A stretch of DNA of 37,462 nt from a virus (lineage: Duplodnaviria; Heunggongvirae; Uroviricota; Caudoviricetes): the IMG/VR virus record IMGVR_UViG_2778261530_000007; one strand, given 5' to 3'. Both the position numbers and the translations under genes were made by a program. The first letter of the stretch is position 1; every line of letters begins with the position of its first letter. Shown here in pieces: positions 1 to 27,672 of this stretch. The notes beneath the pieces are model-generated. The model was not told the origin of the DNA. It made no database searches and was given only the letters and a program-made list of their open reading frames with translations.

Positions 1-1008
1 CTAATCGATGGACAGTTTATGGACACTTTCAGCCAGCGGATTAAAGTTGATCGCGTCCTGTAAAAAGTCCGGCGAAAAATGAGCGTACGTCATTGTTTGC
101 TGAATCGTTGCGTGCCCCAGGATTCGTTGCAACGTAACAATATTTCCGCCATTCATCATAAAGTGTGTGGCAAATGTATGACGCATGACATGCGTAGCCT
201 GCCCCTTCGGCAAATCCGGTTTCACCTCCTGAAGAATCTCCCGGAACTTCAGATAATCAACCTGATACAATAACCCCGTTCGACGGGTTTTAATCAGAGG
301 CACGACCGAATCCGCCACAGGAACCGAACGGGATTTTCCGTTTTTGGTGTTAAAGAACGTCACCCGGTTGCCAACGATATGCTCTCCACGTAGTTCCGAT
401 GCTTCACTCCATCGGGCACCAGTAGAAAGACACAGAATGGCAACACGACGCGCATCACCCTCCAGTCGCTCAAGAAGCCGTTCAATCTCATCATCAGAAA
501 GAAAGGCCATCTCTGTGTTCTGAACTTTCAGTTTTCGTATACCGCGTACAGGGTTCGCGTTGTGAAAGACCTCAGCTTCAATCAGCACCGTGAACATGGT
601 AGACAGTACGCATAAGTCACGATTAATACTGGACGGCATTAATCCGGCCTGTAATTTCTCTGACCGATATTCAAGCATAAATTTTCGCGTCATCTGACTG
701 GCGCGAGGATCTCCCATTTCACGAACAACCTTCCCTAGCCTAACCCTGTAGCTATCCCCGTAAGCCTGATTACGCCCATCAAGCATCCACCACGCATCAA
801 GCAGCTCTGATAATCGCCGCTGATCAGCTGGCTTAGCCTGCCATGGCTTGTCATGAAAGTTCTGTAACACATACTTCTCAAACTCCTGAGCCTTTGATTT
901 CAGGGCAAAGATTTTTCGAATCCGCTTTCCTTCCGCCCCCTGCGGTCTGACATCGACCTGATAACGTCCGTCTTTGAGTTGCTTAATCGACATGATTAGC
1001 CCCTCCAA
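1..1008 (-). CDS. int: Phage tyrosine integrase (P2 Int family); true start may be the internal Met at 993
   Basis: Translation aligns along its length with P2 Int as recalled (MSIKQLKDGRY..., LSTGARW, RHTFATHF, TLQRILGH, TMTYAHF); stop codon is at window positions 1-3. Confidence 0.93.
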   Translation of the reverse strand: MEGLIMSIKQLKDGRYQVDVRPQGAEGKRIRKIFALKSKAQEFEKYVLQNFHDKPWQAKPADQRRLSELLDAWWMLDGRNQAYGDSYRVRLGKVVREMGDPRASQMTRKFMLEYRSEKLQAGLMPSSINRDLCVLSTMFTVLIEAEVFHNANPVRGIRKLKVQNTEMAFLSDDEIERLLERLEGDARRVAILCLSTGARWSEASELRGEHIVGNRVTFFNTKNGKSRSVPVADSVVPLIKTRRTGLLYQVDYLKFREILQEVKPDLPKGQATHVMRHTFATHFMMNGGNIVTLQRILGHATIQQTMTYAHFSPDFLQDAINFNPLAESVHKLSID

Positions 1009-1062
1009 CGGATAAATTAACTAAACACTCCTTGCGATATGTAATTCGCTCAATGTGTAGAG

Positions 1063-1404
1063 TCAGCCAACATTGCGGCCTGATCGGGGTGATTTTTGGG
1101 TAATACCGATTGAAACCTGATCGCCCTCCGACTGAATAGAGCCATCAAGAGAGAGAGCCGGGGCAACCTGCCCGGCAGCGGGAAATGTTTTGTCGTGAAG
1201 TATCCACATAGTGTATTTTTCGAATCGCTCGACTTGGATTACTTTTTCTACAACCTCAATTCGCGCAGGTTTATATCCAGACTCATAATTCCCTATAGTC
1301 CCTACAGAAACCCCCGTTACTTGCGAAAACTGAGATTGTGTAAGTTTTTCTGCATTTCTGATCGCCTTTAGTTTTTTGGCGTAATCTCTTGACATGTTCA
1401 CCAT
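1063..1404 (-). CDS. Immunity repressor, HTH XRE/Cro-CI type (P2 C / 186 CI functional analogue)
   Basis: HTH motif LTQSQFSQVTGVSVGTIGNYESG; sits between int and a divergently transcribed cox-like gene; GAGG ribosome-binding site upstream of ATG at 1404. Confidence 0.75.
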   Translation of the reverse strand: MVNMSRDYAKKLKAIRNAEKLTQSQFSQVTGVSVGTIGNYESGYKPARIEVVEKVIQVERFEKYTMWILHDKTFPAAGQVAPALSLDGSIQSEGDQVSIGITQKSPRSGRNVG

Positions 1405-1427
1405 ACGATGAGTATCCTCTTTTCACT

Positions 1428-1445
1428 CTTCACCACATGGTGAAG
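1428..1445. promoter_or_regulatory. Perfect palindrome CTTCACCA-CA-TGGTGAAG in the repressor/cox switch region; candidate operator
   Basis: 8-bp inverted repeat with 2-bp spacer read directly from the sequence, lying in the 103-bp divergent intergenic region. Confidence 0.4.
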
Positions 1446-1507
1446 AAGACAAACCAAAACAAACCATCACAAGGCGCAACAAGCGCACCAACGCAAGAGG
1501 ATAACAA

Positions 1508-2029
1508 ATGCGGGACTTCATTGCCGATAAAGAGTTATCTGAACACCAACCACTTCAGGAAAGTGACACACTCAGCGGATCCATTGATGCCGCCAACGAC
1601 GACGAACACGAAGAAAACAAGAAAAAGCGTTCCTACAAAAAAGGAGCGACTTTACGGCTGGATGGTCCGATCGCCGGGCTTTGCTCTCTGGAAAAAGGCG
1701 CGGCATATATTGGGATAACAAAATCTGCACTGCGCGTAGCCATTCATCGCGGTCAAATGCCGGGACACAAGACGCGCACAAACCCGGAAGATGAAAACTC
1801 AGACGGAGTATGGTGGTTTAACGCCAAAGAGTGGGACAAGTTGGCTGATGAGCTACCAGAGCACGAGCCCCCAGAATGGCACAACTGGAAAAATTACTGG
1901 ACGTATAACCGCCAGAAAAGGAAGTTCTCTCCAGCTAATAAAGAAGACTGCCAGACCATTAACGGTAAGCGAGTTTATACAGGCAGAAGCTCAAAACTGG
2001 ACCAACTCAGAAACAACAGAGGCAACTAA
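1508..2029 (+). CDS. Cox/Apl-like HTH early protein (putative excisionase / switch regulator) with extended termini
   Basis: Central segment GAAYIGITKSALRVAIHRGQMPG resembles the Cox/AlpA-type HTH; first gene of the rightward early operon; strong RBS AAGAGGA 7 nt upstream of ATG. Confidence 0.5.
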   Translation: MRDFIADKELSEHQPLQESDTLSGSIDAANDDEHEENKKKRSYKKGATLRLDGPIAGLCSLEKGAAYIGITKSALRVAIHRGQMPGHKTRTNPEDENSDGVWWFNAKEWDKLADELPEHEPPEWHNWKNYWTYNRQKRKFSPANKEDCQTINGKRVYTGRSSKLDQLRNNRGN

Positions 2030-2033
2030 TCGT

Positions 2034-2456
2034 ATGAAAACAAACACGTCAGATTTCACAATAACTATTTCAAAAAATGACCAAGCATTAATTGATAACC
2101 TGAAATACCTTGCGGAAAAACATAATAACGGACGAATTGCAATTAATTTACGACACATCACAGGAGTAACAATTGTAACCAGTTACTGGCATCTATATCT
2201 AATCGCTAAATCAGTACTGAAAAACAAAGATTCTGTTGTCAATGGAAGAGATGTAGATACTCTTCCTGCACAAATCAAACCGATAGCCTATCAATTGCGT
2301 AATCGTTTTAAAAATGAAGGTGGGATTATATTTGACTTTCCCGCAGCTGTAGCCGTGAGCTTCTCTCGGGAGGATATACTTCACTCATTTCGTTTTGCTC
2401 TATCAGGTGACGAGACATTATGGCAGCTAGAAGATGCCGGGAGCAGCCCGGCATAA
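2034..2456 (+). CDS. Hypothetical protein (141 aa) in an AT-rich moron; start taken at the internal ATG with a GAGG RBS rather than the long ORF-track start
   Basis: Uninterrupted ORF; AT-rich composition unlike flanking phage genes; no recognisable motif. Confidence 0.5.
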   Translation: MKTNTSDFTITISKNDQALIDNLKYLAEKHNNGRIAINLRHITGVTIVTSYWHLYLIAKSVLKNKDSVVNGRDVDTLPAQIKPIAYQLRNRFKNEGGIIFDFPAAVAVSFSREDILHSFRFALSGDETLWQLEDAGSSPA

Positions 2457-2462
2457 ATCAAA

Positions 2463-2654
2463 TTAAAAATCAACCAGTTGTGTGACAGGTGGGTATTTAC
2501 GCTGAATTTTGTCAGTTACTAACGCCAGTAATATATGAATCTCTGCGTTTAATGCGTCTTTATCACCCGTCGTTTTTACCCTAGGAGGGTTAATGTTATC
2601 CAGAGCAGCACTAAGGTCACTCAACAAATTAACAACTTTTTTATCTTCTGACAT
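2463..2654 (-). CDS. Hypothetical small protein (63 aa), convergent with the preceding moron gene
   Basis: ORF with AGAGG RBS 7 nt upstream of ATG on the minus strand; same AT-rich block. Confidence 0.45.
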   Translation of the reverse strand: MSEDKKVVNLLSDLSAALDNINPPRVKTTGDKDALNAEIHILLALVTDKIQRKYPPVTQLVDF

Positions 2655-2789
2655 GAAAACCTCTAAACAATTTAATTAAACATAAGCCAGGACCTGAACC
2701 GGCCAGTCCAAGTCCTAGACACACAAAAAATACCACAAATCAATACAAGGTGACACGAGTACACCTTACCGAAGGTACAGAGTTTTAAT

Positions 2790-3140
2790 ATGAAACTACA
2801 GCGCAATTCTTCACAGCCGCGCTTCCGCAACGGTGCGGAACGCCACGCTAACCGTTTCGCTACCAGTGCATCACGTAGCAACTCTCGCTACAGCCTGAGC
2901 GAAACACACGCAACGCCGGATGGCTACCCAGTAAAACAAATCGGCGAGCATACCTGGCTGATTGAGAAAGCTGGAATTGTGGTCCACAAATGCCCACGCA
3001 ATCCGTTTACCGGAAACCGCATTTTTGCATTGAGCAACGGCGACAATCAGTTCGGACAGGATTTTACATTGTACGAAGCGCTACGCACGGTTGACCGCTT
3101 AATTGCAGGACGTAGTTTTCAGCATCCACGGGGGAATTAA
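2790..3140 (+). CDS. Hypothetical early protein (116 aa)
   Basis: ORF in the rightward early operon; no recognisable motif. Confidence 0.5.
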   Translation: MKLQRNSSQPRFRNGAERHANRFATSASRSNSRYSLSETHATPDGYPVKQIGEHTWLIEKAGIVVHKCPRNPFTGNRIFALSNGDNQFGQDFTLYEALRTVDRLIAGRSFQHPRGN

Positions 3141-3143
3141 CCA

Positions 3144-3398
3144 ATGGCAACAACGACAAAAAACATGGTAGAGATAGCCTCGGCCTACACTCTTATCATA
3201 CACCGACTCATAGATAATAATGCCCGTGATGCATTAAATACGGTGAAACCTTTATCGGAAGCAAAAAGCGATACTATCAGCGGATTAAAGTCACTACAGG
3301 AATGCGCACGCTATGCAGGTGATCACGCCGCATACATGGCCATTAACGATGCAATTGAGCGCATTGAATCAGGTAAACCATTAAGAGATTTTGTTTAA
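3144..3398 (+). CDS. Hypothetical early protein (84 aa)
   Basis: Tightly packed ORF starting 4 nt after the previous stop. Confidence 0.55.
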   Translation: MATTTKNMVEIASAYTLIIHRLIDNNARDALNTVKPLSEAKSDTISGLKSLQECARYAGDHAAYMAINDAIERIESGKPLRDFV

Positions 3399-3418
3399 TT
3401 GTTTTCCGGGAAAATGCA

Positions 3419-3661
3419 ATGGGCAAAGAATATAAAACTCTCATTAACAAAGCACTTGAGCGTTTTTATTTTCGCTTAAGTGCATCAGGCGCTCATGCTG
3501 AACGCGCAGCCCGTGACTCATTGACCAGGGCAATCCGGAGTCTGTATGACGTGGCTTTTTACGCTGATGATCTGGATGCACTTAACGAACTTTCCGAACT
3601 CGTCTGCGCCGCAGAATGCGGAGAACATATTGAACCGTATAAGCTGGGGAATATCGCATGA
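3419..3661 (+). CDS. Hypothetical early protein (80 aa)
   Basis: ORF in operon context. Confidence 0.55.
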   Translation: MGKEYKTLINKALERFYFRLSASGAHAERAARDSLTRAIRSLYDVAFYADDLDALNELSELVCAAECGEHIEPYKLGNIA

Positions 3662-3771
3662 GTATATTTATGTCATGGATTGTTCTGATTATTTCGGTGG
3701 CCTGCGCCATTGGGATTATGCGAATTATTCATTCAGTGAAAAAGATTGAACGTTTTTTCTCTGACGAATAA
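3658..3771 (+). CDS. Small hydrophobic protein (37 aa, MSIFMSWIVLIISVACAIGIMRIIHSVKKIERFFSDE), single predicted TM helix
   Basis: Hand-translated; ATGA overlap with the upstream stop; below the ORF-track length cut-off. Confidence 0.35.
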   Translation: MSIFMSWIVLIISVACAIGIMRIIHSVKKIERFFSDE

Positions 3772-3864
3772 CAGCACAAACAAAACACCAGATTAAACAA
3801 GAAAACGTGAAAACCATCCGCATTAGCGGAGGTATTCGCACACGTAAATAACGGAGATACAAAA

Positions 3865-4275
3865 ATGAACGCAAAAGAAAAAGGCATTGTAACTGCGCTA
3901 AAAAATATATCAGAGACCGCAAACAGAGCCATTCAGGATGCAACAAATGCAGGAATGATTGGGCCTGCCACCACGGCCATGATGATAACAAGAGTAACCG
4001 CCGAAGCAGCCGAAATCATCGAAAAACAGGATGCTGAACTAACGGTTCTCAAAACACAACCAACCACCAGACTGAATTTATCTGACATTGGACACCTTAT
4101 TCATATTATTGGCTCGGAGCTACAGCAATACATCATTATCGCCGAATTGCAGGACAAATACCTGATTACCCCTTACCCCGTAAGAGAGTCAGAAGTTCTG
4201 ACAAATCTCCGCCTGATAGAACGCACTCAGGCCGCATTCATTGATGGCACGCAACGTGCCGTATTTAACGCATAG
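3865..4275 (+). CDS. Hypothetical early protein (136 aa)
   Basis: ORF in operon context. Confidence 0.55.
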   Translation: MNAKEKGIVTALKNISETANRAIQDATNAGMIGPATTAMMITRVTAEAAEIIEKQDAELTVLKTQPTTRLNLSDIGHLIHIIGSELQQYIIIAELQDKYLITPYPVRESEVLTNLRLIERTQAAFIDGTQRAVFNA

Positions 4276-5051: not shown

Positions 5052-5255
5052 ATGAACAAAAAGACCTGGTTTCGCGCATACATGTGGGCGCTGGTATGCG
5101 TCCTCGTTTCTCTCATTCTGTATGCAGGACTACTCCCCCGAATGATTTCATCAGACAGCTCCTTCCTGGTATTGCTGGGCATTTTCATTGCCATGCTGTA
5201 CCCGGCAGGCGTTGTTCGCCTTTTCAGTAAGTACATCAAGGAAATCAAACAATGA
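5052..5255 (+). CDS. Small membrane protein with two predicted TM helices (67 aa); possible partner of the downstream SPFH protein
   Basis: Two hydrophobic stretches (WALVCVLVSLILYAGLL and FLVLLGIFIAMLYPAGVV); stop overlaps the SPFH gene start (ATGA). Confidence 0.55.
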   Translation: MNKKTWFRAYMWALVCVLVSLILYAGLLPRMISSDSSFLVLLGIFIAMLYPAGVVRLFSKYIKEIKQ

Positions 5256-6082
5256 AGAAATTCAAACTCTTTCAGATTATCCCTCTTTTTGCCGCCATCC
5301 TGCTGGTTGGTTGCGATCGTGTTGAGCCAGGTAATGTGGGCATCAAAGTCAACAAACTGGGCGACGATAAAGGCGTCGGTGAAGTGGTTGGTGTTGGCCG
5401 CTACTGGACTGGCTGGAATACCGAGGTTTACATCTTCCCGACCTTCAAACAAATGAAGACCTACGATGAGCCGTTCAGCTTCCAGATGAGTGACGGCACA
5501 ACCATCGGCTATCACATCGGTGTGGCCTACAAGGTTGATCCATCCAAAGTTACTACAGTGTTTCAGACCTACCGCAAAGGCGTGGATGACATTACCGACA
5601 CTGACCTGCGCCAGAAGATAGCCGACGCACTCAACCGACTGGCCAGCAAAATGACCACCGACAAATTTATCGACGGCGGGAAATCTGAACTACTGGATGC
5701 AGCTCTTAAAGACATTCAGGAGGAAATGACACCCATCGGTATTCAGGTAATGAGCCTCTCATATGTGGGTAAGCCGGAGTACCCGTCAACCGTTATCGAC
5801 AGCATTAATGCCAAAGTCACGGCAAACCAGAAAACCCTGCAACGCGAACAGGAAGTCAAGCAACGTGAAGCAGAAGCCAACATGTTGCGCGCAGAAGCTG
5901 CCGGACAGGCTGATGCGATTCGCACAAAAGCCCAGGCTGAAGCCGACGCTATTCGTTTACGCGGTGAAGCTCTGCGCCAGAATCCCGGCGTTATGGAGCT
6001 GGAAGCAATCAACAAATGGAACGGCACGCTGCCGCAATACATGACCAGCAATACCGCTGTTCCGTTTGTTCCGGTGAAGTAA
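5252..6082 (+). CDS. SPFH/band-7 (prohibitin/flotillin-like) domain lipoprotein
   Basis: Lipobox signal peptide ending LLVGC; SPFH-like core followed by an Ala/Glu/Gln-rich coiled-coil (EQEVKQREAEANMLRAEAAGQADAIRTKAQAEADAIRLRGEA). Confidence 0.8.
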   Translation: MKKFKLFQIIPLFAAILLVGCDRVEPGNVGIKVNKLGDDKGVGEVVGVGRYWTGWNTEVYIFPTFKQMKTYDEPFSFQMSDGTTIGYHIGVAYKVDPSKVTTVFQTYRKGVDDITDTDLRQKIADALNRLASKMTTDKFIDGGKSELLDAALKDIQEEMTPIGIQVMSLSYVGKPEYPSTVIDSINAKVTANQKTLQREQEVKQREAEANMLRAEAAGQADAIRTKAQAEADAIRLRGEALRQNPGVMELEAINKWNGTLPQYMTSNTAVPFVPVK

Positions 6083-11362: not shown

Positions 11363-11698
11363 ATGCAACGCATTGACAGAGAAAAAGCGCAGCGACTGAT
11401 TGAGCGGATGGAAGCGCTGGCGAAAGAAGAAAATGTCAACATCCAAAAAATAGCTGAATGTGGCCAGATAGTTCTTCGTCGTGAAAAAGACCTCAAACAA
11501 CTGATGTCTGGCGAAACCAGCAAAACATGGACTTCAGGTGAGGAGACGATTTATTGCAGCTTCTGCAATAAATCCCAGTACGAAGTCACAAAGGTGATTG
11601 CCGGACCGTCTGTTTACATCTGCAATGAGTGCGTTGATTTGTGCAATGAAGTTATCAGGAGAGAAGTGACAGACCATGAAGAAAAAACGCATGAATGA
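11363..11698 (+). CDS. Small protein with a C-terminal ClpX-type C4 zinc-binding domain (ZBD) and a novel N-terminal helical region; lacks the AAA+ module
   Basis: C-terminus [39 protein letters not shown] closely matches the ClpX N-terminal zinc finger as recalled ([39 protein letters not shown]). Confidence 0.8.
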
Positions 11699-11864
11699 CG
11701 AATTTGACGGCTTTTAATTTTATCGGGGCGCACTGTCGCCCTGCATGGAGAAAAACAATAAAAAAGATGAATAACTGCTCATGTCAGACGCGCTGCGGGC
11801 AAGTCTGGCACCCTGCCCTGTCTCCGCAAAGGCTGTTGTCTTAACACGACAGAGTATGCCAGCA

Positions 11865-12272
11865 TTAAATATAATCTTCTTCGTAGTCGCTGATTAATTC
11901 ATTGCCATAATCAGACAGCAATTTCAAAGCAAAGGTAACTTCCTCAAGGGTAGCTATCCCCATTGCTGAAAACACCGTTAATTTAACCAGCAGCAGGGAG
12001 TTTGAAAGTTCGGAAGAGTTCATCATTAAAAATATTGATGCAGCCTGAAAAGCTGTGCGTTTATTCCCATCATGAAAGGCATGAGCCTTGGCTATACCAA
12101 TCAAATACATAGCAGCCAGAGCATGAATATCATCAACCCCTTCATAGTAGTGTAGTGTCCTGACGCGATTTAAAGCACCTTCAAGTAGCCCGTCATTGGC
12201 ATTTCCGCTCTGGGGTAAAGTTTCAGCATGGATACGTTCTACTTGTTCTTTTGACAAAAACACTATGTCCAT
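11865..12272 (-). CDS. doc: Doc (death-on-curing) Fic-fold toxin
   Basis: Fic/Doc signature HAFHDGNKRTA; start overlaps the stop of the upstream antitoxin gene (TGATG). Confidence 0.85.
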   Translation of the reverse strand: MDIVFLSKEQVERIHAETLPQSGNANDGLLEGALNRVRTLHYYEGVDDIHALAAMYLIGIAKAHAFHDGNKRTAFQAASIFLMMNSSELSNSLLLVKLTVFSAMGIATLEEVTFALKLLSDYGNELISDYEEDYI

Positions 12273-12628
12273 CAGTTATCCTCAAGCTTTTTAATGATAT
12301 CCGCATGTTTTTCTCTTGTACGCTTCATTGCATCTTCAAAAGACAATCCTTTTTTTCTCTGTGCGACAAGAGCTGGATGACGTTTTTCCAGATCTCTCAC
12401 TGCATTTATTAAGAGTGGTTGCTTCATTTTGTTTATTTGATCCCGCAGTTTTTTGGTTTTGCCAAGGACAGCCCGTATTTCAGGACTAAGATCAGAACCA
12501 GCAAGAACAACATCCTTCCCTCCCTGCGCCGTGATAACGACACTGCCACCGGAAGAAAGGTAATCCAGAATTTCACTCAGGTTCTCACGAAATTCATCAT
12601 CAGTTACAGTTTTCATATTCATTTCCAT
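12272..12628 (-). CDS. phd: Putative Phd/YefM-type antitoxin with C-terminal extension, cognate to Doc
   Basis: Upstream of and translationally coupled to doc; N-terminal region resembles the Phd/YefM fold pattern (EFRENLSEILDYLSSGGSVVITAQGGKDVVL). Confidence 0.6.
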   Translation of the reverse strand: MEMNMKTVTDDEFRENLSEILDYLSSGGSVVITAQGGKDVVLAGSDLSPEIRAVLGKTKKLRDQINKMKQPLLINAVRDLEKRHPALVAQRKKGLSFEDAMKRTREKHADIIKKLEDN

Positions 12629-24366: not shown

Positions 24367-27141
24367 ATGAGCACGAAATTTAAAACCGTTATCACTACTG
24401 CCGGAGCCGCAAAGCTGGCAGCTGCCACTGCCCCCGGCGGGAAAAAAGTAACCCTGTCTGCAATGGCCGTGGGTGACGGTAATGGCAAATTGCCGGTGCC
24501 GGATGCCGGTCAGACGAAACTGGTGCATGAGGTCTGGCGTCACGCTCTGAATAAAGTCAGCGTGGATAACAAGAATAAAAACTATATCGTGGCTGAACTG
24601 GTTGTACCGCCCGAAGTGGGCGGCTTCTGGATGCGTGAGCTTGGTCTGTATGACGATGCCGGAACACTGATTGCGGTATCCAACATGGCAGAAAGCTATA
24701 AACCAGAACTGGCTGAAGGCTCCGGACGTGCGCAGACCTGCCGCATGGTTATTATTGTCAGTAACGTGGCGTCTGTTGAGCTGACTATTGATGCCAGCAC
24801 AGTGATGGCGACGCAGGATTACGTCGATGACAAAATCGCAGAGCATGAGCAGTCCCGCCGCCATCCTGACGCCACGCTGACAGAAAAAGGTTTTACTCAG
24901 TTAAGCAGTGCAACAAACAGCACCAGTGAAAAGCTGGCGGCAACGCCAAAAGCGGTCAAGGCAGCAAATGACAACGCAAATTCACGTCTGGCGAAAAATC
25001 AGAACGGTGCAGATATCCAGGATAAATCAGCTTTTCTGGACAATATTAGTGTTACCAGCCTGACGTTTATGAAAAACAACGGCGAAATGCCGGTTGATGC
25101 TGATCTGAATACATTTGGTCCTGTTAAGGCTTATTCAGGTATCTGGTCTAAAGCAACGTCCACCAACGCAACACTGGAGAAAAATTTCCCGGAAGATAAT
25201 GCTGTCGGTGTGCTTGAGGTTTTTACTGGCGGCAATTTTGCAGGCACGCAACGCTATACCACACGTGACGGAAATTTGTATATCCGCAAACTCATTGGAA
25301 CATGGAATGGTAATGATGGACCATGGGGAGCATGGCGCCATGTTCAGGCTGTAACGCGTGCTCTAAGTACGACCATTGACCTTAACTCTCTCGGTGGCGC
25401 AGAACATTTAGGTCTATGGAGAAACAGCAGTTCAGCAATAGCTTCTTTTGAACGACATTACCCTGAGCAGGGAGGAAACGCGCAGGGCATTCTGGAAATT
25501 TTCGAAGGTGGGCTATATGGACGCACGCAGCGTTATACAACCCGTAACGGGACTATGTATATTCGCGGCCTGACAGCCAAATGGGATGCAGAAAATCCAC
25601 AGTGGGAAGACTGGATCCAAATTGGTTATCAGACCAGTAGTACCTTCTATGAGGATGACCTGGATGATTTGATGTCTCCGGGTATTTACAGTGTGACAGG
25701 CAAAGCGACCCACACCCCAATCCAGGGGCAGTCTGGTTTTCTGGAAGTCATCAGGCGCAAGGATGGTGTCTATGTTTTGCAACGTTACACGACCACAGGA
25801 ACCAGCGCAGCTACAAAAGACCGTTTATATGAGCGAGTGTTTCTTGGTGGCTCATTTAACGCGTGGGGGGAGTGGCGACAGATTTATAACTCAAACTCTT
25901 TGCCGTTAGAGTTGGGCATCGGTGGCGCTGTGGCAAAACTCTCCAGCCTGGACTGGCAGACCTACGACTTTGTGCCGGGCAGTCTGATAACCGTTCGGCT
26001 TGATAACATGACCAACATTCCCGACGGTATGGACTGGGGCGTCATTGATGGCAACCTGATAAACATCGCAGTTGGTCCGAGTGATGATTCCGGTACGGGG
26101 CGCTCAATGCATGTATGGCGCAGCACTGTAAGTAAAGCCAACTACCGCTTTTTTATGGTGCGTATTTCAGGAAATCCGGGAAGCCGCACGATCACGACAA
26201 GACGTGTGCCAATTATCGACGAAGCTCAGACATGGGCGGCGAAACAAACCTTCAGCGCCGGTCTTTCAGGCGAACTGTCCGGCAATGCGGCTACAGCTAC
26301 AAAGCTGAAAACGGCAAGGACAATTAACGGCGTGAAATTTGATGGTTCTGGCAATATCAATATTAATACGCTGGTATCCAGGAATCGCGTTGCTGCATTA
26401 AGCGGGAGTGAGAAGGGGGTGCCTGGTATTCAGATGTATGAGGCATATAACAATGGCTACCCTTATGCCTATGGCAATGTGCTTCATCTTACGGGGGTAT
26501 CCGCAACCGGAGAAGGTGAGTTACTTATCGGCTGGAGTGGAACCAGCGGTGCTTATGCACCAGCATATATTCGTTCAAGGCGGGATACAGATGGCGCTCA
26601 ATGGTCTGGATGGGCACAGCTTTATACGACAGCACATAAACCATCCGCTGGTGATGTTGGTGCTTTACCGATATCCGGTGGCACTATTACAGGCGGTTTA
26701 ACTGTTGATGGGGAAGTTGTTTCAAGGTCAGCAAACGGTTATCGCATCGTATGTGGGAACTATGGATTCTTTATCCGAAATGATGGTAATTTCACCCATT
26801 TCATGTTGACCAACTCCGGTGACAGTATGGGGGGATGGAGTAGTTTAAGCCCATTCTATATTCAGAATTCCACTGGTGGAGTCACTATTGGCCATGGATT
26901 AACTGTTGCCGGACAAGTTGTGCCAAGTAACTACGGTAATTTCGACGGGCGTTATGTGATGGATGTTCGCCTGGGAACACGTGTTGTTCAATTGATGGCG
27001 CGTGGCGGGCGTTATGAGATGGCCGGACACACAATTACCGGATTAAGAATTATTGGTGAAGTTGATGGCGATGATGAAGCCATCTTCAGACCGATACAAA
27101 AATACATCAATGGCACATGGTATAACGTCGCACAGGTGTAA
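24367..27141 (+). CDS. H: Tail fibre protein H, mosaic: P2-like N- and C-termini with a divergent repeat-containing central region
   Basis: N-terminus ([25 protein letters not shown]) and C-terminus ([63 protein letters not shown]) match P2 H as recalled. Confidence 0.9.
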
Positions 27142-27144
27142 GTT

Positions 27145-27672
27145 ATGCAGCATTTAAAAAATATAAGGTCAGGAAATCCGAAAACCATTGAACAATATCA
27201 ACTAACAAAAAAATTCGACGTTATCTGGTTATTTTCAGAGGATGGAAAAAACTGGTATGAAGAGGTAAAGCATTTTCAGGAAGACACAATAAAGATTGTT
27301 TACGATGAGAATAATATTATTGTCGCCATTACCAAAGATGCATCAACGCTTAATCCAGAGGGGTTCAGCGTCGTTGAAGTCCCTGATATTACCGCCAACC
27401 GACGAGCTGATGACTCAGGTAAATGGATGTTTAAGGACGGTGCCGTGATTAAGCGGATTTATACGGCAGACGAACAGCAGCAACAGGCGGAGTCAAAAAA
27501 GGCAGCTTTGCTTTCCGAAGCTGAATCCGTGATTTTGCCGCTGGAGCGCGCTGTCAGGCTGAATATGGCAACAGATGAGGAGCGCACACGACTGGAAGCC
27601 TGGGAACGCTACAGCGTTCTGGTCAGCCGTGTGGATACAGCAAAGCCCGAATGGCCACAAAAGCCTGAGTAA
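27145..27672 (+). CDS. G: Tail fibre assembly chaperone (P2 gpG family)
   Basis: Position directly after H; typical length (175 aa). Confidence 0.8.

Follow-up and report, generated by a model that had tools for sequence, protein, structure and literature searches.

A convergent gene pair behind cox in a P88-like prophage: an early-operon gene and a predicted moron

What is a stretch of unusually AT-rich DNA doing between cox and the early genes of a P2-like phage? The question is raised by positions 2030 to 2790 of IMG/VR record IMGVR_UViG_2778261530_000007, a stretch of 37,462 nucleotides that is referred to here as the window and is a P88-like (Peduoviridae), P2-like E. coli prophage. The original prediction, made from the DNA alone, described a moron of two facing genes inserted next to the immunity switch.

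The block between cox and the early genes

The following features define the block and its neighbours.

1389 to 1418, plus strand: predicted early promoter Pe (TTGACA, 18 nt, TATCCT; 10 of 12 matches in a consensus scan)
1508 to 2029, plus strand: long Cox-family gene, 173 aa (Pfam Phage_Cox, E 1.5e-7; phrog_23196, E 6e-114)
2027 to 2713, no strand: indel block of 687 bp, absent from the related prophage L010 (BLAST and junction alignment)
2790 to 3140, plus strand: DUF4761 gene (Pfam DUF4761, E 9e-65), the right neighbour and next early gene

Pe would drive cox, the first gene of the block (ORF-A) and the downstream early genes. The C/cox switch region also contains TTCACCA repeats at 1397 and 1429 and an inverted copy at 1438, which look like operators.

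The AT-richness of the block relative to its neighbours was borne out by a sliding-window GC run. With 200-nt windows, the GC content of 2001-2800 is 0.34-0.44, compared with 0.47-0.51 in cox and 0.50-0.56 in 2701-3000. At 600-nt resolution, 2101-2700 (GC 0.388) is the minimum of the entire 37.5-kb window, and the runners-up are 12001-12600 (0.415) and 26701-27300 (0.417). The individual genes have GC contents of 39% (ORF-A) and 38% (ORF-B). A base composition unlike the surroundings, here 0.38-0.39, is one of the properties by which morons are recognised.

Another such property is presence or absence at the same site among close relatives, and this has also been observed. L010, a prophage in E. 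coli PRO_A-1504-6M-A_ESBL, lacks exactly 2027-2713, with flanks that are 97-99% identical to the window; BLAST aligns window 1449-2026 with L010 1924-2501 and window 2714-3094 with L010 2501-2881. The C repressor proteins of the two are identical (same accession), and their cox regions are 98.8% identical. The reference phage P88 has no A/B block, and in both P88 and L010 the DUF4761 gene immediately follows cox. In L029 and P88_4B11 the slot is filled by different cargo. On this comparison, the block is accessory and dispensable.

The left edge of the indel is the cox stop codon (2027-2029), and a CTA microhomology is found at both junctions (2026-2028 and 2715-2717). The cox gene of L010 is 185 aa long and extends 12 codons into the region that is the predicted ORF-B promoter in the window. 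This extension and the microhomologies make the L010 junction look like a deletion, which is the most likely origin of the absence of 2027-2713. A search for transposon-like ends found no inverted repeats at the insert ends, and the 3-nt CTA repeat was the only repeat. Since the L010 junction is deletion-like and the A/B pair also follows cox in eight divergent P2-like lineages, the word "inserted" in the original prediction is doubtful. The cassette is probably an old resident of the cox slot and not a recent insertion.

Two conserved genes that recombine separately

The block contains two open reading frames.

2034 to 2456, plus strand: ORF-A, 140 aa (ORF list; homologues after cox; dN/dS 0.18-0.30)
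2463 to 2654, minus strand: ORF-B, 63 aa (ORF list; homologues; dN/dS 0.14-0.21)

Both are real, conserved protein genes, as judged from their divergent homologues in the same arrangement and from purifying selection (dN/dS 0.14-0.30). The predicted 63-aa minus-strand ORF holds as described, with its ATG at 2654 and its stop codon at 2465-2463, and the convergent layout is confirmed by stop codons only 6 nt apart. The plus-strand ORF is also real, with a length of 140 aa and not the 141 aa given originally. Of the two ribosome-binding sites that had been called plausible, that of ORF-B (AGAGG, 5 nt from the ATG) is good, and the candidate Shine-Dalgarno sequence of ORF-A (AGAGG, 2018-2022) is rather far from its start (11 nt).

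The ATG of ORF-A at 2034 lies 4 nt past the cox stop, making it the first gene after cox. No promoter of its own was found, and no plus-strand terminator-like site was detected in 1183-3500. Because of this spacing and the missing terminator, ORF-A reads as a member of the early (Pe) operon. Its homologues, in Salmonella and E. coli P2-like prophages, share 16-37% identity and lie directly after cox or one or two small ORFs downstream; those of the Salmonella lineages are preceded by a good Shine-Dalgarno sequence. The cross-lineage dN/dS of 0.18-0.30 indicates purifying selection. AlphaFold2 with an alignment gave a model of two alpha-beta-beta-alpha halves (pLDDT 58.7, pTM 0.52), which hhalign relates to each other at E 3.7e-4, and from the single sequence the model was poor (pLDDT 35). 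No recognisable fold was found for ORF-A, and Pfam gave no helix-turn-helix or other DNA-binding match for it or its relatives. The protein is soluble and fast-diverging, and probably non-enzymatic.

The ORF-B protein is weakly acidic (pI 5.6), lacks a hydrophobic segment and is read by eye as a helical hairpin. Its homologues are 25-45% identical; the convergent 62-aa ORF of Salmonella L004, for example, matches at 43% identity (E 3e-17). Alignment of six to seven lineages shows a conserved N-terminal M-x-[ED]-D-x-K-x-x-x-LL-x-D and a C-terminal KYP, and the cross-lineage dN/dS is 0.14-0.21. Both proteins are small, and their alignments contain no catalytic-looking invariant residues. The positions that are invariant are D16, T49, Y51 and R120 in A, and D4, K6, LL10-11, D13 and KYP in B.

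At least eight lineages of E. coli and Salmonella prophages (L004, L008, L011, L012/L013, L014, L027, L028 and the window) have the convergent pair after cox, with homologues at 20-45% identity. The common gene order is int, C, cox, A forward, B reverse, early genes and gpA, with the 3' ends of A and B overlapping by 4 nt or lying a few nt apart. L027 carries a homologous long Cox beside the pair, and the Salmonella module adjoins unrelated short Cox and repressor types. The block is present in 272 of the 5426 complete E. coli genomes (~5%), including UTI89 and JJ1886 (ST131), and in 272 of the 310 that have this cox type. DUF4761 occurs in 1314 E. coli genomes, as against the 310 with this cox, and by these counts the E. 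coli module goes with a single cox/immunity type. The E. coli alleles are >97% identical, with 19 variable columns and several non-synonymous changes; these columns are too few, and selection was therefore judged from the cross-lineage comparisons. Wider searches of the genome-contig and metagenome-contig collections found nothing, and the viral-contig search added only L008 and L027. The phage collection gave three near-identical E. coli records alone, and tblastn against it returned just near-identical copies annotated as "hypothetical protein". Both of the two plasmid matches carry A and B together. The records vB_EcoM-569R5/705R2 were considered as viable virions and set aside, since in the part of the source available they appear to be prophages in clinical-isolate genomes.

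The two genes do not share one history. Between L008 and L012, the segment from the terminator to the promoter of B is 93-100% identical (dS 0.02), and the B proteins are 97% identical. The A genes of the same two lineages are 57-77% identical in DNA (dS 1.8), with proteins ~52% identical, and the downstream gene is 25-50% identical. B recombines independently of A, as far as these comparisons tell. A is found without B in L006 and L015, which are two independent arrangements, and in L028 B appears frameshifted beside an intact A. B without A was never seen in the eight lineages or the 272 E. coli genomes. The description of the pair as one unit thus gives way to a gene in the early operon and a separate cassette on the opposite strand that recombines alone.

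The absence of any recognised motif, remarked on in the original prediction, was upheld by searches of Pfam, PHROGs, NCBIfam and PADLOC, which gave no significant match, either for the two proteins of the window or for their relatives (11 of A, 7 of B). Matches of the window's A to DUF1408 (E 0.007) and phrog_5450 (E 0.013) were below threshold and confined to a single member, and were treated as noise, as were a few scattered others of this kind. A 1073-aa protein, P0015, was rejected as a relative because it is a repeat protein with ~34 residues aligned. Profile searches of the PDB with the A and B families were empty, Rfam found nothing in 1000-4000, and PADLOC-DB 2.0 gave zero matches to either protein at E values up to 1. 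Neither protein accession is present in the DefensePredictor supplements, and no mention of the two accessions was found in the literature searched. A and B match no known family in these searches, and the B family seems previously undescribed. A Doc/Phd-like toxin-antitoxin pair of the conventional type is located at 11865-12628 of the same prophage.

ORF-B as a predicted transcription unit

Four elements, all on the minus strand, surround ORF-B.

2727 to 2735, minus strand: extended -10 promoter-like element TGgTATTTT (motif conservation; prediction)
2687 to 2718, minus strand: 5' leader hairpin of the predicted ORF-B mRNA (folding)
2660 to 2664, minus strand: Shine-Dalgarno sequence AGAGG of ORF-B, 5 nt before the ATG (read from the DNA)
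2434 to 2454, minus strand: terminator-like hairpin of the ORF-B transcript, AUGCCGGG-CUGCU-CCCGGCAU, inside the last ORF-A codons

The motif TGnTAnnnT begins 78-84 nt before the ATG of B in all seven lineages measured, and its chance expectation in the 136-nt spacer of the window is 0.05. An eighth lineage, L028, has it just 43 nt before the ATG. No good -35 hexamer accompanies the element in the window; extended -10 promoters function without one. The element lies outside the 2027-2713 indel, in sequence common to the window and L010. Repeats like the C operators (TTCACCA) were looked for near the B promoter and none was found.

The leader hairpin, which would be a stabilising element of the 5' end, has a predicted energy of -20.5 kcal/mol on the minus strand (z -3.6), compared with -7.8 kcal/mol on the plus strand (z -0.65). 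This strand specificity arises because the fold depends on G-U pairs. Seven lineages have a hairpin at the equivalent position, and some of the changes between them are compensatory; in L028 the hairpin is upstream of the -10 element and not downstream. A good Shine-Dalgarno sequence precedes B in every lineage.

In each of the seven lineages folded, an equivalent of the terminator-like hairpin (-13.7 kcal/mol, z -3.0 in the window) follows the B stop. The residues of the C-terminal tail of ORF-A vary between lineages, and the hairpin is always encoded there. The T-runs that follow it are clean in Salmonella L008, L011 and L012, short in L014, and weak in L004, L027 and the window; in L028, reading by eye gave GCCGGGTTACTCCGGC followed by ATTTTTCTTTTG. 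The weak U-tract of the window (CUUCUA) means that transcription of B may continue into A and cox.

A terminator of its own is a further hallmark of a moron, and the predicted hairpin after the B stop provides one at the sequence level. ORF-B seems to be an autonomous unit with its own predicted promoter and terminator. The term "moron" suits one half of the block: ORF-B has the sequence hallmarks of a transcription unit of this kind (promoter-like and terminator-like elements, low GC, and mosaic boundaries at the ends of the predicted unit), and ORF-A reads as an early-operon gene.

What the pair may do

The explanation that we favour, with a confidence a little above even, is that A is an early-operon gene and B a lysogen-expressed moron that is silenced by read-through from the early operon. 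The block would then hold two different things travelling together, the early gene A and a self-contained moron B that faces the early operon. With no C-operator-like repeat near its promoter, B would be constitutive in the lysogen, where Pe is repressed. Once Pe becomes active, upon infection or induction, cox-A transcription would cross B in antisense on its way to DUF4761 and the replication genes. This would silence B, both through occlusion of its promoter and through pairing with its mRNA, and A and B would be expressed reciprocally. The weakest step is the role of the B protein, which would bind something in the lysogen, leading for example to the exclusion of other phages, host modulation or stabilised lysogeny. 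A would function early, either against B or independently of it on a variable target. Mutual interference between convergent promoters is a topic of PMC5001618, judging from the part of that article available, and the available part of PMC7067206 describes accessory moron loci as often strongly expressed in lysogens.

The B promoter, its transcription start, the terminator and the reciprocity of expression are predictions from the DNA, and several observations speak against the explanation: the -10 element is outside the indel and has no convincing -35, the U-tract is weak, L028 has a different order of elements and an apparent frameshift, and the Shine-Dalgarno sequence of A is distant. Any partnership between A and B is weakened by the B proteins being 97% identical beside A proteins that are 52% identical, and by the A-only loci L006 and L015.

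As a moron, B would resemble those of Hendrix and Juhala and the P2 genes tin, old and fun(Z), which are also accessory AT-rich units in P2-like prophages, patchy among close relatives, and have a promoter and terminator (predicted, for B) that allow expression while the surrounding operon is silent. Two positions are recognised for morons of the P2 family, one between A and Q, the other between G and FI (PMC3573123), whereas this cassette is between cox and the early genes. B also differs in that its product is only 63 aa long and has no detectable similarity to annotated phage genes, and in that a conserved partner gene contains the predicted B terminator within its 3' coding sequence.

Among the alternatives, the one that survives best, although we consider it rather unlikely, is a self-immunity arrangement in which B is a lysogen exclusion or abortive-infection factor that also blocks the phage's own lytic growth and the early protein A neutralises it. 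The distribution has the asymmetry expected if B alone harms the phage, with B never seen without A (eight lineages, 272 E. coli genomes) and L006 and L015 having A alone; expression is predicted to be reciprocal, and both proteins are small and have no catalytic-looking invariant residues. However, B cassettes 97% identical beside A proteins only 52% identical would not be expected of a specific binder, unless it is the conserved core that forms the interface, and a B-only arrangement would be hard to form structurally in any case, with the B terminator inside A. PADLOC also gave no matches. P22 sieB/esc and Salmonella BTP1 BstA/aba are exclusion genes with built-in self-immunity. The possible logic would be alike, a lysogen factor near the immunity region with a phage-borne sparing element, but there is no sequence similarity, and the putative antidote would be an early protein encoded separately, not an internal product or DNA site.

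A two-state module is somewhat less probable still. In the lysogen, B would act on phages or satellites that enter or compete, blocking one of their early steps, or its convergent transcription would act as a brake on a leaky early operon; upon induction, Pe read-through would silence B, and A would neutralise the remainder.

We give a low probability to the view of the pair as an accessory of the lysis-lysogeny switch, in which A would be CII-like or a Cox accessory and B, or the leftward promoter, would feed back on the switch. Phage 186 has apl-cII with a leftward pE, and lambda has cro-cII with pRE. Here too a gene lies close behind a Cox/Apl-type gene in a rightward early operon (directly in the window, with one or two small ORFs in between in several relatives), at a position that we take to be roughly that of cII after apl in 186. 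A predicted leftward promoter downstream of A opposes early transcription, the E. coli module is tied to one cox/immunity type (272/310), and the weak U-tract of the window could permit read-through to cox and C. On the other hand, the terminator-like hairpin right after B in every lineage should stop the leftward transcript before cox, and the leftward unit, unlike those of 186 and lambda, encodes its own small protein. A has neither a helix-turn-helix match nor similarity to CII, and is instead predicted to be alpha-beta-beta-alpha twice. The module is dispensable in this phage group and is not a core switch component, since P88 and the L010 prophage lack it, and in Salmonella it is found beside unrelated short Cox and repressor types.

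The suggestion that such cargo might be anti-defence, exclusion or toxin-antitoxin-like found no support: no homology was detected, A occurs without B, and a Doc/Phd pair lies elsewhere in the prophage. A toxin-antitoxin or addiction-like reading, in which one protein is toxic (e.g. A as a host-shutoff early protein) and B made in the lysogen neutralises leaky expression, is very unlikely. Like type II systems such as the prophage's own Doc/Phd-like pair, A and B are small, adjacent and co-inherited (in eight lineages) in accessory AT-rich prophage DNA; the antisense layout would add control at the RNA level, and the original prediction regarded cargo beside an immunity switch as typical for such genes. 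But the genes are convergent and not bicistronic, and so are not co-transcribed, and neither has a toxin or antitoxin family match (Pfam, NCBIfam, PADLOC, PHROGs; PDB profile searches empty). Strict co-occurrence is also not observed, with A lacking B in two independent arrangements and an apparently frameshifted B in L028 adjoining an A that is intact; B recombines separately from A, and the prophage already has a conventional pair at 11865-12628. Hardly any weight is left for chance ORFs in an AT-rich spacer or an RNA-only region (antisense or small RNA), because the near-identical E. coli alleles with several non-synonymous changes among few polymorphisms, the lack of a database family and the poor single-sequence model of A are set against two frames of similar lengths kept where the DNA is no longer alignable, conserved residues and low dN/dS, good Shine-Dalgarno sequences before B everywhere and before A in Salmonella, and a negative Rfam search.

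Under the favoured explanation of an early gene A and a lysogen-expressed moron B, the predicted promoter, leader hairpin, small ORF and embedded terminator give exact predicted transcript ends for a cassette whose copies are annotated everywhere as "hypothetical protein" alone. The cox-proximal end of the early operon is a variable cargo slot in P2-like phages, a third beside the two classical moron positions. If B is not lysogen-specific, the pair would be ordinary phage "dark matter". If it is, B would be a candidate factor for lysogenic conversion or exclusion in lineages of clinical importance such as the uropathogenic UTI89 and JJ1886. Should the two-state reading be true, the pair would represent a new and very small exclusion system with self-immunity in ~5% of complete E. 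coli genomes.

The AT-rich block and its two convergent genes

The prophage that makes up the window is P2-like and falls in the P88 group (Xuanwuvirus, Peduoviridae). The features around the block are as follows.

1-1008, minus: integrase, the first gene of the window
1063-1404, minus: C, the HTH immunity repressor
1389-1418: predicted early promoter Pe (TTGACA, 18 nt, TATCCT), upstream of ORF-A
1508-2029, plus: long Cox-family protein, 173 aa (Pfam Phage_Cox, E 1.5e-7; phrog_23196, E 6e-114)
2034-2456, plus: ORF-A, 140 aa, starting 4 nt past the cox stop
2654-2463, minus: ORF-B, 63 aa, with AGAGG 5 nt ahead of its ATG
2790-3140: DUF4761 early gene, with DUF4754 and the remaining early-operon genes after it

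The original prediction of an AT-rich block is borne out. The GC content is 0.34-0.44 in 200-nt windows across 2001-2800 versus 0.47-0.56 on both flanks, and at 600-nt resolution the minimum of the entire 37-kb window lies at 2101-2700 (0.388). The two ORFs face each other as proposed, with 6 nt between their stop codons, and B has the expected 63 aa; A has 140 aa rather than 141.

Word-indexed searches of 5.8 billion proteins matched A and B to near-identical E. coli copies only, every one named 'hypothetical'. An exhaustive phmmer search of 1.8 billion cluster representatives identified two Salmonella proteins ~31% identical to A, and the A family reached 19 members after a profile search. 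All contexts fetched for the A homologues are P2-like prophages with the order int-C-cox-A and 0, 1 or 2 small ORFs between cox and A. A 60-62-aa ORF faces A on the opposite strand in most of these related loci (L004, L008, L011, L012/L013, L014 and L027), and in most relatives the 3' ends overlap by 4 nt. These ORFs are B homologues; the L004 copy is 43% identical to B (pairwise E 3e-17), and all share an N-terminal M-x-[ED]-D-x-K-x-x-x-LL-x-D and a KYP near the C terminus. The dN/dS ratios (Nei-Gojobori, unsaturated pairs) are 0.18-0.30 for A and 0.14-0.21 for B. Together, the conserved context, the shared B motifs and these ratios indicate that A and B are protein-coding genes under purifying selection and that their convergent pairing goes far back. 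The family has a narrow distribution, in Enterobacteriaceae prophages; none was found outside them in phage, viral, genome and metagenome contig collections.

In two Salmonella prophages, L014 (4001-4678, P0016) and L007 (6001-6705, P0019), B is deleted and A is fused in frame to the product of the downstream gene, here called the 'C' protein (not the repressor). The fusions comprise the first ~125 residues of an A-type protein followed by the C-terminal part of the 'C' protein. L014 also retains, immediately upstream, an A/B pair that is complete and more divergent. The ribosome-binding stretch TTAACGAGGTACAAAATGAAA is common to A and the plus-strand gene that follows it in L004 and could provide a substrate for recombination.

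The B cassette and the predicted early gene A

An extended -10 motif, TGgTATTTT (2735-2727, minus), lies upstream of B as a putative promoter. In all seven lineages measured, the pattern TGnTAnnnT begins 78-84 nt upstream of the B start codon, and this position is kept though the window DNA is otherwise unalignable with the Salmonella lineages. Its 28 occurrences on both strands of the window correspond to 0.05 expected in the spacer upstream of B. A leader hairpin begins 5-8 nt past the motif (2718-2687 in the window) and has a stability of -20.5 kcal/mol (z -3.6) on the minus strand versus -7.8 (z -0.65) on the plus strand. This asymmetry is due to its dependence on G-U pairs and marks the hairpin as a feature of a minus-strand RNA. 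Across seven aligned leaders a hairpin is kept at this position, with a few compensatory changes.

A second stable hairpin is found 3' of the B stop codon in every lineage. It is followed by a clean T-run in the Salmonella lineages L008, L011 and L012 (for example, GGCGGACTGATTCATTTAGTCCGCC then TTTTTCTTT); the run is short in L014 and weak in L004 and L027, and the window has only AUGCCGGG-CUGCU-CCCGGCAU, then CUUCUA. This terminator-like hairpin sits within the last codons of A, whose C-terminal tail is disordered in the AlphaFold2 (AF2) model and varies in amino acids between clades, with the hairpin always encoded. Since the plus-strand sequence after these hairpins is A-rich and a scan of the region found no plus-strand terminator, early transcripts should pass through them.

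A 6-9-6 inverted repeat, AAGGTG...CACCTT (2747-2767), is located just upstream of the B -10 element. Some alleles, including the JJ1886 type, have two more A residues in the plus-strand A-run at 2724, which is the minus-strand T-run between the -10 element and the leader hairpin; this is the sole indel across 14 E. coli copies of the block.

The Salmonella-type loci L008 and L012 are 57-77% identical in DNA across A. Identity rises to 93-100% in a stretch that begins ~60 nt short of the A stop, at the terminator-like hairpin, and takes in B with its leader and putative promoter; in the gene beyond that promoter it is 25-50%. The dS values of this pair are 0.02 (B) and 1.8 (A). The pattern points to a recent exchange of the promoter-to-terminator B unit, and exchange of exactly such a unit is a textbook moron signature. 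The same identity contrast shows that B can do without a closely matching A.

A is best read as an early gene, because it starts 4 nt after cox, lacks its own promoter-like site and has the predicted Pe upstream of it. A and B do not form a single unit; A would belong to the early operon and B to a separate cassette exchanged apart from it. Transcription from Pe can reach DUF4761 and the replication gene only by crossing B in antisense. In the C/cox switch region (1381-1520), TTCACCA occurs twice, at 1397 and 1429, and once inverted, at 1438; together these copies form the palindrome TCTTCACCACATGGTGAAGA, and they probably act as operators for the immunity repressor.

A variable slot next to cox

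Three E. coli phage or prophage records share the region at 97.5% identity (megablast), and 272 of 5426 complete E. coli genomes carry it with 95-99.9% identity. The UTI89 copy (99.7%) lies in a prophage already catalogued as PhiECO5, where the A/B genes were not remarked on (PMC3448106); the ST131 strain JJ1886 copy is 98.7% identical. This cox type is present in 310 E. coli genomes, 272 of which have the block, and the DUF4761 gene in 1314. A and B are also found together, with 95-98% identity, in two E. coli records filed as plasmids, NZ_MK439959.1 (228 kb) and CP054248.1 (542 kb).

The empty-site genome L010 (E. coli PRO_A-1504-6M-A_ESBL) shares the integrase site with the window, and its C repressor is the identical protein, down to the accession. 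It matches the window at 1449-2026 (98.8%) and 2714-3094 (96.9%) and lacks exactly 2027-2713. The trinucleotide CTA is present at both junctions, and no terminal inverted repeats were found at the block ends. The L010 Cox has 185 aa, its 12 extra codons reading through the B promoter region of the window. In the distant relative L027, the long Cox stops where that of the window stops and is also followed by an A/B pair. These two observations suggest that this cox type originally carried the module and that L010 lost it by deletion. The block is accessory, moron-type cargo as predicted, and not a simple recent insertion.

The slot is empty in P88, holds three small ORFs in P88_4B11 and encodes a 68-aa two-transmembrane protein in ETEC1749. 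Just two moron positions, A-Q and G-FI, are named for P2-like phages in the literature (PMC3573123), and the cox-proximal slot is a third variable one.

A second AT-rich island (11363-12628, GC ~0.42) lies between the replication and portal genes, at the classical P2 moron position, and the P88 'lipoprotein' gene, of equal length (831 bp), occupies the early-region place corresponding to the SPFH/Band 7 gene. Salmonella relatives have further convergent pairs of an early-strand and a counter-transcribed gene, and such counter-oriented cargo seems to recur inside the early operon.

Window 5052-5255: 67-aa hydrophobic ORF ahead of the SPFH/Band 7 gene
Window 5252-6082, plus: SPFH/Band 7 protein, 276 aa, inside the early operon (PF01145, E 1.8e-30)
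Window 11363-11698, plus: 111-aa protein with a ClpX-type C4 zinc finger (E 3e-17)
Window 11865-12272, minus: Fic/Doc-family protein (PF02661, E 3.5e-11)
Window 12272-12628, minus: Phd/YefM-like antitoxin directly preceding Fic/Doc (E 7.8e-7, just under the Pfam cutoff)
L004 6766-7804: 259-aa gene versus 103-aa gene, 3' overlap 53 nt
L012 5389-6006: 102-aa gene versus 108-aa gene
L007 6001-7237: A-C fusion versus 168-aa gene

Possible roles of A and B

Neither protein matches Pfam, PHROGs, NCBIfam, PADLOC or PDB sequences, and 11 A and 7 B relatives scanned singly likewise gave no family match, in agreement with the earlier remark that no motif could be recognised. Both are soluble with negative GRAVY, and the pI is 5-8 for A and 4.6-5.6 for B. 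The AF2 model of A is poor from a single sequence (pLDDT 35) and mediocre with a 15-sequence alignment (pLDDT 58.7, pTM 0.52), showing two alpha-beta-beta-alpha halves. The halves align in register (hhalign E 3.7e-4, probability 36%), which is suggestive of an internal duplication. The invariant residues of both proteins are mostly hydrophobic with a few charged ones, and on this basis A and B may act by binding rather than as enzymes.

No TTCACCA repeat was found near the putative B promoter, so B would be transcribed constitutively in the lysogen. Firing of Pe would then shut B down through convergent transcription and antisense pairing, and A would be made only once Pe fires. One asymmetry mildly favours a reading in which B needs A, with A an early antidote to the lysogen-expressed factor B: two independent arrangements (L006 and L015) have A and no B, and B never occurs without A. 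But the location of the predicted B terminator within A could by itself account for this asymmetry, and the contrast between 97% (B) and 52% (A) identity speaks against tight pairing. A toxin-antitoxin pair is disfavoured, as three of its defining features are missing: co-transcription, kinship of either gene to a toxin or antitoxin family, and strict co-occurrence. Nothing points to a toxin-antitoxin, defence or anti-defence role. A CII-like lysogeny regulator is disfavoured by the lack of an HTH in A, the terminator-like hairpin after B and the dispensability of the module.

The A/B block is an undescribed example of a familiar type of phage element, and the predicted architecture of the B transcript is unusually well defined and directly testable. 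Its significance would rise if B turned out to be an exclusion factor specific to the lysogen, with A providing the self-immunity.
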